From: Octopus sinensis
Lineage: Eukaryota
Direction: 5' to 3'
NCBI RefSeq assembly: GCF_006345805.1
Contig: NW_021832962.1
Location: 1 to 56,230, forward strand
Length of the DNA stretch: 56,230 nucleotides
Position numbers and translations under genes: made by a program. Positions 13,331 through 43,833 of this stretch are shown one piece after another (the stretch's first letter is position 1; each line of letters starts with the position of its first letter). The notes below the pieces were generated by a model. It searched no databases. It saw only the letters and a program-made list of their open reading frames with translations, and had not been told where the DNA came from.

Positions 13331-13868
13331 ATTATTTACATTATTTACATTTAACGGATATTTGTCCTCATCTTGTTTGTCGTTGACACAGCGTTTCGGC
13401 TGAGTATACCCTCCAGCCTTAATCAAGTGTCTTGGAGAACATTCGAACCTGGGTTCTCATTCGTAAGGTATTTTTCGATGTTATTATTATTATTATTATT
13501 ATTATTATTATTATTATTATTATTATTATTATTATTATATTATATTGTTATTATTGGCTATTATTATTATCTTATTATTATTATTATTATTATTTTATTA
13601 TTAATTATTATTATTATTATTATTATTGATTATTATTATTATTTCAGGTCACTGCCTAGAATCGAATCGGAATATTGAGGTTGTAGCCCCTGCTCTTAAC
13701 CACTACGCCATATGCCCAGATTCGAAATTTCCCCAAGTCACCTGATGAAGGCTGGAGGGTATATCAACCGAAACGTTGTGTTGACAACAAGCAGGATGAG
13801 GACAAATATCCGTCAAATGTAAATAATGTAAATAATGTACATGATTCCTCCTCTCTTAAATATAGAAC
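13331..13868 (-). mobile_element. tRNA-headed, hammerhead-bearing element with an inverted partial copy
   Basis: On -: tRNA-like head 13717-13645, an (AAT)n tract, a hammerhead-like region 13431-13385, then a tail. An inverted copy lies on + at 13715-13868. The flanks are duplicated: TGGTACTTGGAT (13319-13330) and TGGTCCTTGGAT (13869-13880). Confidence 0.82.
13737..13782 (+). ncRNA. Minimal type I hammerhead ribozyme motif
   Basis: GTCAC-CTGATGA-AGGCTG..CAACC-GAAAC-GTT-GTGTT. The core boxes are intact, stem III is the palindrome AACGTT and stem I is CAC/GTG. The inverted copy has perfect stems GACAC/GTGTC and GGCTG/CAGCC. Confidence 0.8.
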
Positions 13869-14049
13869 TGGTCCTTGGATGTTGAATGTCTTCCACGATA
13901 ATTAACAACCAAGTATCAAAGCTTATAAGGTGCAGAAAGAGACCCCGTGAGACCTCTGACACCAGGCTGCAGTCTCTTCAAACAGAATATACCAGAGTCA
14001 ACAAGGCCGAGTGCTCTGAGAAGTAAAACAATAGTAACAATAATAATGA

Positions 14050-14250
14050 CTAGCAGGACCCGTGAATATTTCACGGAATTAATGGTAAATCTGTCGGGTT
14101 ATTTCTGAAAACTTTATCCCAAAATCCTGAAAGTGTAGCCTTTGTTGTGTCTGTATGAACAGATAATCGTTCATCTGCTAATCATTGAAAACTGAAAAGA
14201 ACTGGAATACGATGATTACTTGATGCACGTTATATATACACTTTTTATAT
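14050..14250 (+). mobile_element. Possible non-autonomous Helitron/Helentron-type element
   Basis: Begins ACTAGCAGGAC followed by the hairpin CCGTGAA..TTCACGG, which resembles HINE/Lep1-type termini. The 3' end is uncertain. Confidence 0.35.
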
Positions 14251-14324
14251 ACTTTATGCAGTTTTTAGAGACTTAATACACAGCACTCATAAAATAAATA
14301 TTCACTCTTGCCCCCCCACCACCA

Positions 14325-14520
14325 CCACCAACATTGCTTCACAACCGATGCTGGTATGTTTACGTCGCCCGTAACTTAGCAGTTCGGCAAAAGGGTCCGA
14401 TAGAATAAGTACTAGGCTTACAAAGAGTAAGTCCTGAGGTCGATTTGCTCAACTAAAGGCGGTGCTCCAGCATGGCCACAGTCAAATGACTGAAGCAAGT
14501 AAAAGTGAGTAAAGAGTAAC
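14325..14520 (+). mobile_element. SINE family A, 3' fragment
   Basis: Matches the tail of 21057-21472. Confidence 0.85.
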
Positions 14521-14524
14521 CTCG

Positions 14525-39781: not shown

Positions 39782-40603
39782 TTACAGGGTAAATGTTTTT
39801 TAATTTTCTCCTGGTTTACGGAATTGATGTTATTTTGCGGTTGAAGCTTTTGGCTGTTATTTCTAGTGGGTGAATGGCCTATTATGGCCGTTCCTTGATT
39901 GTGATGTTGAAACTTAAAAATGGTCTATGACTATTTAATTTTTTCCACTAGGCCGCTGGTGACAAAAAAAAAAAAATTCTACAAAATTTTTTTGCCACCC
40001 TATATTGATTAATTATATATATAATATATATATATATAGAGGTGTGTAGAATGGGTAGAAATGCTTTTGTCCATGGTATGTGATTCCGATAAGAGTTCAT
40101 ATATATATATATTTATATATATATATATATATATAATAACAGCTGCAGACTACCCTTCTGTTTATAAATGTACTATAAATCCACACCGCCTTGGCTTTAT
40201 TGTCTCATTTTATTTAACATATATATATTTATATATATACATTTTATATATGTTTATGTATGTGTACATTATATATAAATTATATATTTATATATATAAT
40301 ATATATATATATATACAATATTACATATTATGTATATATATTTATATACATATATATACTGTATATATATATATACCTATATATATACATATATTGCATA
40401 TATATACATATATATATATATATATATAACATAATATATATATATATATATATATATATATACATATATATTATATATATACATATATATGTATATATTT
40501 ATATCAGTATCTGTTTATGTATGTATGTATGTATGTATGTATGTATGTATGTATGTATGTATGTGTGTATGTATGTATGTATGTATGTATGCATCTATCT
40601 ATC

Positions 40604-41372
40604 CAGGGACTGTCGCTAAGCCTCTGCAACCGCTGCGGTCGCAGGGAGCCTACGTGATTGAGGAGCCCCATCTTAAGATCAAAGTACGTAGATGAGCCAT
40701 CTATTTGCTCTGGTTAAGATGTTGGACAAGAATTAACTTATCTATTATACAACACGGAATTTTGTCAATGAACAGGTCGCGGTCTCAATCGACGAAAACA
40801 TTTTGACAAATCAAATTTAAATGTTGAAGTGAATCTAACGGATTTTGTGTTTTTCTTAAATGGCTTATAAACACCTTTCACGCTGCAACTGTTAACTTAT
40901 ATATGTTAACTGAAGATTTCAAGAAATATATTGTACCTGCAATACATTGTACCTGCAAAAGTTCTTGTAAAAATATTGCATTATACCTCAAACATGTACC
41001 AGACATTGTGTATTGTCAATGATATTTATTGAAAAGGAACTTAGCTCTCAGGTTGATCATTCTGAACTGATCAATGATTTCGCGAAATGATAAGTGCGTC
41101 ATGTTTGTCTTTGAAGGTTGCCTAGATTATAAAATTGCTCTTTTATTCATATCTGGAAGTTTTACTTATTTAAATTTGTAATAGACCTTAATAAATTTAA
41201 CTTGTACTTTTAAATATGTTTTTTCGGATGACGTGAAATATTGAACTTCAGGTAGAATAAAGTAAAATATAGCTATCAATATACGATGCGTAGATTATGA
41301 ATTTTGATTGAAGGGATGGGGCCCTGAAACAAAAATTTGCAGGGGCCCGCTAAAAATCACGTGACGGAGCTA
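40604..41372 (+). mobile_element. hAT deletion derivative
   Basis: Degenerate TIRs CAGGGACTGTCGC and GTGACGGAGCTA, flanks TATCTATC and TATCTACC, subterminal GGGCCC motifs, and IEKELSSQVDHSELINDFAK resembling the hAT C-terminal dimerisation region (about 41028-41087). Confidence 0.68.
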
Positions 41373-41509
41373 TATCTACCTGTCTATCTATATCTATCTG
41401 TCTTAGGGTGGCCACTCTCGCCTGGTAATAGGCCGAGAGGAAGCTGTCCCTAAAAAGTCTACTACCACATGACTGTCGTGCCTTGTCCCTATCCTACCAT
41501 CACCAAACT

Positions 41510-41778
41510 GGAACGTGTAAATGTGTTACTGTGTGACATTATTGCCCGAGGTTACCGTGGTCTTTTCGCAGGTTTTTCTTTCAAGGGATAAACCTCTCCA
41601 CTTTTGGGAACTTTTTGAACTATTTCGACTTTCAATCCCAAACGATTTCGATCCCTTTTGATCGTTGTCCCTATTTTTATTTTTTATTTTTGTTTATTTT
41701 CGCACCTTCCCTCGAAAAGAAAATTCTACATTGTAATTGTCCCCTCTATGTTCAGCCCCTGTGTGCCAATAAAGAAAG
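41510..41778 (+). mobile_element. Repeat family D (probable LINE 3' end; tail shared with SINE B)
   Basis: Reverse-complement similarity to 54068-54345. Tail TTGTCCCCTCTATGTTCAGCCCCTGTGTGCCAATAAAGAAA is followed by (TCTA)n. Confidence 0.65.
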
Positions 41779-43791
41779 TTATCTATCTGTCTATCTATCT
41801 ATCTGTAATCTATCTATCGATCTGTCTATCTATCTATCGATCTATCTATCTATCACCTATCTGTCTGTCTGTCTTTCTGTCTGTCTGTCTGCCTGTCTAT
41901 CTATCTATCTGTCTGTCTATATATCTATCTGTGTATCTATCTGTCTGTTTCTCTATCTATCTACCTCTTTATCTATCTATCTTTCTGTCTGTCTATCTAT
42001 CTATCCATCTATCTGCCTATCTGTCTACCTACCTATACATCTGCCTATCTATCTATCTCTCTGTCTACCCATCAATCTGTCTATCTGTCTATCTATCTAT
42101 CTATCAATCTGTCTATCTGTCTATCTATCTATCTATCTATCTATCTATCTATCTATCTACCTATCTGTCTGTCTGTCTATCTAGCTATCTATCGGTATGT
42201 CTCTCTTTTCCTGTTGTTGCTATATCTGTACATCACTGTCTATTAATTCTATTTGTGTGTCTGTTTTACTCTTAATTTGCTTGTATTTTTCTTTTCTATT
42301 TTGTATTGTTTTGTTTCGTTCATTTAATATTTGATAACATCTTTCTTTTGTTGATACTGTGTATGCTTTCTTTTGTTTTTTGTTTGTTTCTTTGTATTTA
42401 TTATGAAGTAGGGCAGTAATGATATCTTTTTTTTCTTTTCTTGTTTTTTTCATACTTTCTATTTCGTTTCGTGTCACCCAAATATCGTTTCAAATTTCTT
42501 GATGAAAATTTTCATTTTCGGATTGATGGTGTTATTACTGTTGCTGTTGTTGATGATAATGATGACGACGACGACGATGAGGATAAGGATGAGGAAGAGG
42601 AGGAAGATTGTGATGATGATGACTATAATGTTGATCATCACTGTCGTCATCATCATCATCATTATCGTCCGTCACCACCTTCATCATCACCATCTCTGCA
42701 TCATCATCATCATTATCGCCCGTCACTACCTTCATCATCACCATCTCTGCATCATCATCATCATCATCATCACTTTCAATATCATCATCAGCAGCAGCAG
42801 CAGCATCGCTACAGCGATATCAATGAAGAAACTCGAGTACATTCTGTAAATTAATTTCTGTTTAACTTTCACACAGTATCATTGATAACAAGAATACAAC
42901 AACAACAACAACAACAACGACAGCAGCAACAAGACCAAACACTAACGGTAAAGACTAATAACAAACAACAAATGTTACAGAATAGCAGACCATAACATCA
43001 ACAGCAACAACAACAACTACAACATCGCCAACAACAATAGAACTGGCCAGAGGTTACGAGTATTCGGAAAAAAAAGAACTGGATTGGTATGGTGGATTGC
43101 CCTTGAACATGTCTGTCGGTCTGAGCTAACAACAGCAACAGCAACAGCAACAACAACAACAACAACAACAACAAGAAGCTGACCAACTAGAGACATTCTA
43201 CAGGATCTCTGAGCCTGCTGGAAATAACACCCAAATCTCCCTCAAATATCACACTACTCTTGTAGGAAGTTTGGAATGTGTCGGCTGGTCGATGATGATG
43301 ATAATGAGGAGAAGGAGGAGGAGGAGGAGGATAACGACGGTGATGACGGCGCTGAAAATAAAAATTATCAATAGGAGGAGCAGTAATAAGAATTATGATA
43401 ATAATATTAGATTAAAACTAATAATAATAATGATAATAATAATGATAATAATAATAATAATAATAATAATAATAATAATAATAATAATAATACATTTAAA
43501 TTCTGTTTCATTTCATTTAGCATTCTTTTAACAGTAATAATAACAGCAAAAATACGATAAAAATAACAATACTGTTGATGATGACGATGCTGATGATGAT
43601 AATGATGATGATGACGATGATGAATATAATGATGATGACGATGATGATGATGATGATGATGATGTTCATCCTCATCAGGATGATGGTGGTGGTAGTGGTG
43701 ATGTAGACGACGAGGATGACAATGAAGTGACGATGGCAAATAGTGAGGAGGTTGATACACAAAACAGAAGCCGATAATATTATAGTACTTT

Positions 43792-43833
43792 ACTATGCTA
43801 ATGAGATCTAATAGACCGAAACACGCCCATTGT
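43792..43833 (+). ncRNA. Decayed minimal hammerhead motif (probably inactive)
   Basis: ACTATG-CTAATGA-GATCT(AAT)AGACC-GAAAC-ACGCC-CATTGT. The topology is preserved but several positions are substituted. Confidence 0.45.

Follow-up and report, generated by a model that had tools for sequence, protein, structure and literature searches.

A whole contig of 56,230 nucleotides from Octopus sinensis (NW_021832962.1 of the 2.72-Gb assembly GCF_006345805.1), a small contig with visible indel errors, is the window analyzed here, and it contains four elements that we number E1 to E4 in window order. Each is a pair of divergent, inverted arms associated with hammerhead ribozymes or hammerhead-like motifs. 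We consider it probable that E1, E2, and E3 are 3′ ends of protein-coding Penelope-like elements (PLEs) from three clades, and that E4 is a tandem hammerhead repeat that was inserted by PLE machinery from a circularized monomer. E1, E2, and E3 are linked at other loci to open reading frames (ORFs), and E4 combines a tandem noncoding unit, a covarying hammerhead, (TA)n targets, split ends, and sameness of units within insertions. The reading is drawn entirely from DNA, so that cleavage, circles, and expression stand as predictions. The parts of the four elements are as follows.

13319..13330: E1, left target-site duplication, 12 bp, with one mismatch to 13869-13880
13331..13717, minus strand: E1 left arm with tRNA-like segment, (AAT)n, and mutated hammerhead, no tail; putative Poseidon-type PLE 3′ untranslated region (UTR)
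13645-13717: E1 left arm, tRNA-like segment
13385-13432: E1 left arm, mutated hammerhead
13716..13869, plus strand: E1 right arm with minimal type I hammerhead and tail
13737-13782: E1 right arm, hammerhead with 4-nt palindromic stem III
13837-13869: E1 right arm, tail of about 33 nt
13869..13880: E1, right target-site duplication
30913..31092, minus strand: E2 left arm, ending in (TA)n, no tail
31026-31061: E2 left arm, atypical hammerhead-like motif
31187..31390, plus strand: E2 right arm with tail of about 36 nt; putative Neptune-type PLE 3′ end
31218-31254: E2 right arm, atypical hammerhead-like motif
31392..32092, minus strand: E3 left arm, putative Hydra-type PLE 3′ UTR
31474-31568: E3 left arm, hammerhead with long stem II
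about 31771-32077: unrelated repeat interrupting the E3 left arm
32095..32271, plus strand: E3 right arm with tail of about 60 nt
32122-32136: E3 right arm, GAAA/stem III half of a hammerhead only
38891..39485, minus strand: E4 left arm, 1.2 units of a 489-nt putative retrozyme, ending at unit position 131 in (TA)n
39011-39109: E4 left arm, hammerhead
39477..40016, plus strand: E4 right arm, 1.1 units, ending at unit position 235 in (TA)n
about 39680-39780: E4 right arm, hammerhead with indels in the window copy

The pairs were detected by self-BLAST of the window after masking of short tandem repeats, which covers 18,822 bases; a generic repeat finder was swamped by microsatellites. The four elements gave no cross-match, and in all of them the left arm reads on the minus strand and the right arm on the plus strand, with arms 85 to 94% alike. 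The original prediction had placed four unrelated, noncoding ribozyme families here, each inserted as an inverted pair with a hammerhead core and a self-complementary stem III. The places, the unrelatedness, the strands, and the four palindromic stem III words are all borne out, and the cores are so in part. Specifically, a relaxed type I hammerhead descriptor found three motifs in the window (mean of 0.225 and maximum of 1 in 40 block shuffles), but only three of the eight arms pass it singly (E2 right, E3 left, and E4 left), the other five being damaged or partial, and the E2 core reads UUGAAGA/UUGAAAA, not CUGANGA. Family alignments of E1, E3, and E4 do contain the CUGANGA/GAAA core, the UH site, and stems I to III. 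Rfam covariance models, which had been proposed as a check, gave no hammerhead among the best 150 of 269 window rows and neither a hammerhead nor a tRNA for E1 or E4 at E values up to 5; the scans returned microsatellite-driven miRNA matches only.

A first look at copy number yielded 2,862, 1,520, 649, and 2,421 candidates for E1 to E4, so that all four families are high copy. Among sampled loci, which include those of the window and from which overlapping loci were dropped (one for E2, nine for E4), an inverted arm lies within 1.5 kb upstream in 14/30 (E1), 8/29 (E2), 5/30 (E3), and 12/21 (E4), and within 1.5 kb downstream in 0/30, 0/29, 3/30, and 1/21, respectively. Inversion in these families is common and directional, yet not universal, and most sampled copies are without a nearby inverted arm; insertion as an inverted pair thus describes the window and not the families. 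The divergent inversion is indeed a signature of PLE insertion. With one motif on each strand, it cannot itself supply the hammerhead dimer that had been envisaged.

By its sequence context, E1 is the 5′-truncated 3′ end of a protein-coding Poseidon-type PLE. The window copy is a single insertion, because the 12-bp target duplication encloses both arms and only the right arm has the tail; duplications of 11 to 15 bp occur at several other loci. In the window the left hammerhead core is mutated and the right stem II has one mismatch. The family hammerhead is canonical and minimal (5-bp stem I, an extra base, 5-bp stem II, and a 4-nt palindrome); it is fully intact in 11 of 30 distinct segments, and its exact 35-nt form has 1,951 matches across the genome, with 0 for a reversed-pattern control. 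Upstream of it lie the (AAT)n and the tRNA-like segment, which has A and B boxes in the consensus. When loci were fetched with a Poseidon-type endonuclease ORF end, that end ran directly into the tRNA-like segment in 27 of 29, and the E1 hammerhead arm was scored in 25 of 29 by a crude k-mer test. A GIY-YIG ORF end is found upstream of the tRNA-like segment at loci L009, L018, L125, and L212. The ORF link covers the endonuclease and the C-terminal part of the reverse transcriptase (RT) only, there is no linker finger in this ORF, and the Poseidon label leans partly on motifs that we take to be characteristic of that clade. A description of E1 as a stand-alone tRNA-derived short interspersed nuclear element (SINE) was dropped once the GIY-YIG ORF ends were seen. 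As for its surroundings, E1 lies within the 3′ part of a non-LTR retrotransposon remnant (LTR, long terminal repeat; 12672-13330 and 13870-14060, plus strand; weak zf-RVT match, E 0.002), and related ends of long interspersed nuclear elements are inserted in the (AAT)n of E1 copies L008, L011, L021, and L029.

E2 is, on similar grounds, the 5′-truncated 3′ end of a protein-coding Neptune-type PLE. At L050 a GIY-YIG ORF, a repetitive UTR, and the E2 motif follow one another on one strand; the same ORF is present in inverted orientation at L037 and L046, and 20 of the 30 loci retrieved with this ORF had matches to E2-like ends. Related ORFs of 620 and 751 amino acids match Pfam RVT_1 (E 1e-8 and 9e-10) and GIY-YIG (E 8e-6, above the cut-off, and 0.004, below it), and the 620-aa ORF had no match in PDB. 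The linker of this ORF has CX4CxxC plus CCHH motifs, which fit the description in PMC8557442. In a relative, L192, the motif stands at both ends, as in a layout of direct pseudo-LTRs around the ORF. The U3-A8 core and GAAAGCGCUA are kept across E2 subfamilies, there is C-C or C-A at 10.1/11.1, and stem I has 2 to 3 bp; exact searches for alternatives gave no match for a canonical version and one for a G10.1 version. U3-A8 cores and a 2-bp helix I have been described in PLEs (PMC4209133). We infer that the motif descends from a hammerhead, because its arrangement is preserved in sister subfamilies, where changes in stem II are compensated; its activity is doubtful. Two further observations concern family 2. 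A third fragment, at 25634-25755 (minus strand), has the tail end only, without a hammerhead, in (TA)n. In addition, L033/L200 (G000:C10:63222267-63224276) forms an almost perfect palindrome of 2 kb, apparently with the element's 5′ part in it, and is either a young insertion or an artifact.

E3, which sits in (TA)n at the end of E2 and was itself interrupted later by another repeat, is by the same kind of evidence the 5′-truncated 3′ end of a protein-coding Hydra-type PLE. Basal stem II of its hammerhead has 8 bp and bears a long extension, the palindrome is 8 nt long, and the whole resembles the hammerheads of other Hydra families in this genome. Of 30 loci, 3 have the ORF upstream in the same orientation, and three more have it inverted. 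This ORF had no Pfam match; it carries the Hydra motifs DKT and CxCX5C, and Hydra elements are reported to have hammerheads and to target (TA)n (PMC8557442). L129, a Hydra relative, has a direct pseudo-LTR layout around its ORF. Separately, the Hydra-type ORFs of L182-L191 have long asparagine-rich inserts between RT and endonuclease, like rotifer PLEs (PMC3846280).

Across these three elements, the tail of about 33, 36, or 60 nt is on one arm only of each window pair (two-tailed exceptions are L019 and L035), and both E2 and E3 end in (TA)n. Their hammerheads would be ordinary pseudo-LTR ribozymes, and most genomic copies are dead fragments. The claim that the families are noncoding survives for E4 and fails for E1 to E3, whose sequence elsewhere in the genome leads, on the upstream side, into PLE ORFs. 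The broader proposal of a set of PLE-mobilized ribozyme elements fares likewise: there are many PLE-type hammerhead families and E4 is a putative retrozyme, but E1 to E3 appear to be the ends of autonomous PLEs and not passengers.

E4 is, as far as its sequence allows it to be classified, a non-LTR retrozyme. Its 489-nt unit (range, 487 to 508 nt) is repeated head to tail, each unit has a type I hammerhead, and the longest stop-free frame is at most 62 aa. Unrelated PLE fragments flank 4 of 55 E4 loci, each from a different family. GC content is 0.37 at 39001-40000, and the unit folds with z = -5.8 relative to shuffles. A sister family has a 475-nt unit that is 73% identical; exact stem III matches number 3,061 (E4) and 542, with 0 for reversed-pattern controls. 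The hammerhead has a 7-bp stem I, a stem II extension of about 65 nt, and a 12-nt palindromic stem III that is predicted to be able to close as a monomer, so the expectation of minimal hammerheads applies to E1 and not to E4. The stems are also maintained by covariation, as had been anticipated for family consensus sequences: across 13 hammerheads, 98.4% of cells are paired (25 to 45% in slid-partner controls) and five pairs are changed on both sides. Basal stem II forms four to six pairs in all 13 despite differing sequences, and at L425 a doubly changed stem III is found in five units. One side observation is that hammerhead position 11.1 varies between C and U opposite A10.1 in both sister families, and every listed E4 array is uniform for one 11.1 state on both arms.

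The insertions of E4 have a regular architecture. Mixed-strand clusters are divergent in 14 of 14 cases for E4 (first 100 matches, read by eye) and in 17 of 17 for the sister family. Of the 14 inverted E4 arrays, 13 have one arm whose end falls at unit position 129-136 and one whose end falls at 235-239, always within (TA)n; the fetched sequence covers the remaining array incompletely, and the window copy follows the rule. Inner junctions are scattered, mostly with overlaps of 0 to 5 nt (9 nt in the window). Furthermore, 58 position-sampled units differ by 0.8% when they share an arm, by 0.9% when they lie on opposite arms, and by 4.5% when they come from different insertions; the last value compares with 0.5% among top-ranked matches. 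Each of eight arrays has 4 to 40 variants common to all of its full units, with few single-unit variants, and where sampled these shared variants span both inverted arms. Because units are alike within insertions and diverse between them, a template of one unit appears to underlie each insertion, most simply a cleaved and ligated circle, as PMC7229834 proposes. E4 is therefore likely, as judged from its structure, to yield cleaved or circular monomers, and its insertions look PLE made. Four contig sets cover 29 of 29 bins of the unit; the RNA origin of two is only guessed and that of the other two is unknown, and since they show no ends, strand, or level, they are evidence on expression neither way.

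These features could be produced by one series of steps. A PLE protein would nick both strands of an AT-rich target, and each nick would prime reverse transcription at one of two internal RNA start sites, one of which gives a tail and the other does not. The two cDNAs would grow inward, stop, and be joined by microhomology or at a natural palindrome, leaving a divergent pair with one tailed arm. For E4, the enzyme would travel several times around a ligated monomer as its template and so produce one to six near-identical units per arm, and the helper would likely be a Hydra- or Neptune-type PLE that targets (TA)n. If synthesis uses two primers, the arms should diverge, each pair should have a single tail, and the orientation of the spacer should not depend on the tail; this is what is seen. 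In vitro, a Poseidon PLE of an anole cuts and extends both target strands and uses two internal RT start sites that bound the tail, and its hammerhead is protein assisted and dispensable for insertion (PMC11167929). A further step, which we regard as possible and advance tentatively, is that E4 insertions record both the life cycle of a retrozyme and the origin of PLE inversion, with two cDNAs rolling on one circular RNA to give back-to-back arrays. The palindromic hot spot of E1 would then be the same two-primer join in a coding PLE. This hot spot is a natural micro-palindrome found where the tRNA-like segment begins; 342 loci are perfect head-to-head joins there, compared with 424 colinear copies.

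Alternatively, a single cDNA could fold at a palindrome or microhomology, prime itself, and be copied back, with the end classes arising from endonuclease resolution. In rotifer PLEs, palindromes seen where inverted copies meet led to a proposal of such fold-back (PMC3846280), and the tail has been ascribed to endonuclease-mediated resolution (PMC8557442). The E1 hot spot does sit on a hairpin-forming word, and private variants are common to both E4 arms, as a copied-back strand would have them. A copied-back arm, however, cannot gain a tail, and among 34 E1 palindrome loci with a readable spacer the tail is on the spacer-sense arm in 10, on the opposite arm in 7, and on both in none, so that 7 of 17 scorable tails lie opposite the RNA-sense spacer arm. 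Moreover, either E4 end class can occupy the longer arm. On balance we favor two-primer synthesis and regard self-priming as a serious but less likely alternative.

Rather unlikely, in our estimate, is that E4 arrays were made without a circle, whether from linear multimers of homogeneous source arrays or by tandem expansion after insertion, in the manner of a satellite. Homogeneous sources would also give homogeneous daughters, and bioRxiv 10.64898/2026.07.22.740005 favors local tandem amplification of PLE ends and reports cleavage in vitro for only one of nine frog dimers. Against this, the variants common to all full units in each of the eight arrays point to a one-unit bottleneck, and the hammerhead stems are kept by compensatory changes across families that are only 73% alike.

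Several observations weigh against the combination of PLE ends with a PLE-inserted, circle-derived retrozyme. The labels Poseidon, Neptune, and Hydra rest on motifs and not on an RT tree. The E2 motif, with its short stem I and no G10.1-C11.1 pair, may not cleave. For E1, a tail was undetected in 17 of the 34 tail/spacer loci, and later recombination between arms could flip the 2-nt spacer. The covariation of E4 comes from few independent lineages, the structure was drawn from the same sequences, and 137 of 500 shuffles reach the same number of doubly changed pairs. The sister family fits the two-end rule in only four of six arrays, and the E4 extension of about 104 nt is much longer than the published tail of 30 to 40 bp. 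Finally, no autonomous PLE with the 3′ end of E4 was present among 430 loci, and the helper is read from the insertion signature. BLAST of Hydra, Neptune, and GIY-YIG loci gave no E4 helper, and a stem III variant pattern gave eight matches (three for the control), five of which are E4 relatives.

It is unlikely that the short form of E1 is a SINE-like subelement, driven by RNA polymerase III (Pol III) and moving on its own RNA. Such an element would resemble Sm-alpha in joining a tRNA head to a hammerhead, and parts of the evidence suit it: matches to the A and B boxes are separated by 34 nt in the consensus, 6 of 10 copies are called by ARAGORN when its threshold is relaxed, the head is 62 to 65% identical to genomic tRNAs (z up to 6.9, with the parent tRNA unresolved), and many copies start at the head. 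The head is, however, embedded in a PLE 3′ UTR at the 27 of 29 ORF-end loci and in the 424 colinear matches. PLE bases immediately upstream of the point where the tRNA begins are retained at the junctions, the hot spot needs no explanation beyond the palindrome, ARAGORN with default settings called no gene in eight loci, Rfam reported no tRNA, and both boxes are kept in only 2 of 10 copies.

The original prediction had pointed to PLE remnants in the same window as helpers for all four elements. The remnants and the further hammerhead-like motifs of the window are as follows.

23049..23790, minus strand: Hydra-type PLE RT remnant (tblastn 23049-23787, E 4e-102)
29900..30880, plus strand: 5′-truncated PLE of a separate family, outer limits approximate
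30072-30491: GIY-YIG remnant within 29900-30880 (tblastn E 7e-25 to 6e-28)
30670-30706, plus strand: fifth hammerhead-like motif, decayed U3-A8 type with AAUUU stem III, at the 3′ end of the same remnant
44870..45600, plus strand: frameshifted Neptune-type PLE linker/GIY-YIG remnant (tblastn 45025-45579, E 3e-15)
43790..43836, plus strand: decayed hammerhead-like motif, which probably set the end of the span first singled out

All three remnants, predicted at 23050, 30095, and 44870, are real, although Pfam missed these short stretches. The first, which belongs to none of the families of E1 to E4, matches a young Hydra-type family whose 727-aa ORFs are intact (82% identity over 103 aa); it was considered as a Naiad element, which its relatives rule out by having a C-terminal endonuclease and Hydra motifs. 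The third is 36 to 49% identical to other PLE families. That four nonautonomous ribozyme elements are served by these three remnants is very improbable. The window copies do lack an ORF, PLE remnants are nearby, and E4 is indeed nonautonomous; for E1 to E3, however, the colinear ORF loci refute the idea. Furthermore, the families of the 23050 and 30095 remnants have hammerheads of other kinds (the family version of the 30670-30706 motif recurs in many loci, often on both strands), and around them there was no convincing DNA match to E1-E4. Help in trans for E4 from the three remnants is possible. Scarcely credible is the last alternative, that the pairs are assembly artifacts from chimeric fold-back reads: the contig is small and shows indel errors, and L033 is a near-perfect palindrome, but the window arms differ by 6 to 15% and in their ends, target-site duplications flank whole pairs, and the same geometry is found on large contigs.

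Other features were noted in passing. One young family of Hydra type (L231:553-2733 and about 150 loci; frames of 720 to 766 aa), present in many nearly identical copies, is a candidate active helper; immediately upstream of its ORF lies a hammerhead variant of its own. Several GIY-YIG matches in 781-aa open frames have identical scores (e.g., G000:C1:207477583), which suggests a second young PLE family, likely Neptune type. At least 12 more hammerhead families, mostly with an 8-nt palindromic stem III, occur in the flanks of fetched loci (L049, L052, L065, L079, L111, L129, L132, L139, L141, L153, L188, L193, L198, and L225). The motif at 43790-43836 has four other genomic matches, which cover the motif only, one with an intact core. 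CTGATGA words at 4343-4443 (plus strand, in a 43-bp tandem) and at 32373-32410 (plus strand, before GAAA) fail the hammerhead descriptor and had no match in other loci. Eight copies of a 49-bp minisatellite (22548-23052) abut the Hydra-type remnant and were not found in other fetched loci, and a weak DDE_3 transposase remnant (27818-28042, minus strand, E 0.007) adjoins 85-bp repeats at 28044-28782.

Hammerheads, inverted arms, and tails are published features of endonuclease-bearing (EN+) PLEs, and PLE hammerheads on opposite strands 100 to 700 bp apart have already been reported (PMC8557442; PMC3846280; PMC4209133). E1 to E3 share with EN+ PLEs an ORF of RT plus C-terminal GIY-YIG, a hammerhead near the 3′ end, 5′ truncation, an adjacent inverted copy with a tail on one arm, a palindrome at the junction, target duplication or (TA)n targeting, and, for E2, the U3-A8 core variant with a short stem I. 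Since such hammerheads and inverted ends are textbook for the class, these three are mostly annotation. They differ in that E1's Poseidon family has a tRNA-derived 3′ UTR segment whose start is a single-site inversion hot spot, and E2's Neptune family has a motif without the G10.1-C11.1 pair. Pol III-headed hammerhead repeats are known in schistosomes as Sm-alpha and Sj-alpha (PMC6765202); like them, E1 combines a type I hammerhead with a Pol III-type head on its upstream side, but its head is inside a coding PLE, tandems were not seen, and a Pol III role is predicted only. In the literature searched, which lay outside Repbase, Dfam, supplements, and subscription papers and was accessible in part, neither these families nor the E4 insertion rule was found described, and PMC10886601 and PMC8967140 added nothing on the families in their accessible portions. 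The families of E1 to E4 may already be catalogued, and cephalopod families may be among those listed in the supplements to PMC8557442 and PMC4209133.

The closest relatives of E4 are the metazoan non-LTR retrozymes, with which it shares structured, noncoding, low-GC tandem units that each have a type I hammerhead (PMC7229834). Its units of 489 and, in the sister family, 475 nt are longer than the 170 to 400 nt given in PMC7229834 and within the 51 to 972 nt of bioRxiv 10.64898/2026.07.22.740005. It differs in the 12-nt palindromic stem III and the extended stem II, and no pseudo-LTR homologue was found. The features reported for retrozymes in the accessible text include neither divergent inverted arrays nor a pair of discrete ends nor targeting of (TA)n, and "inverted" occurs 0 times in that of PMC7229834. 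The preprint argues that animal retrozymes are nonautonomous PLE derivatives, naming no mollusc in its accessible portion; it supports the link by co-occurrence and pseudo-LTR homology and calls the mechanism unresolved, and the making of inverted, one-tailed PLE copies is described as undefined in PMC8557442. The footprint of E4 bears on both of these questions: about 3,000 motif copies, two sharp ends with one per arm, and one template per insertion lead to predictions that can be counted. E4 is also a candidate abundant circular RNA in a lineage without such a report in the literature searched. If our reading is true, young intact PLE ORFs in the same genome would allow the two-primer step and the copying of a circle to be rebuilt in vitro. 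What E4 would then have in common with other metazoan retrozymes is the course already proposed for them, that is, mobilization by PLEs by way of circular RNA intermediates (PMC7229834; bioRxiv 10.64898/2026.07.22.740005).

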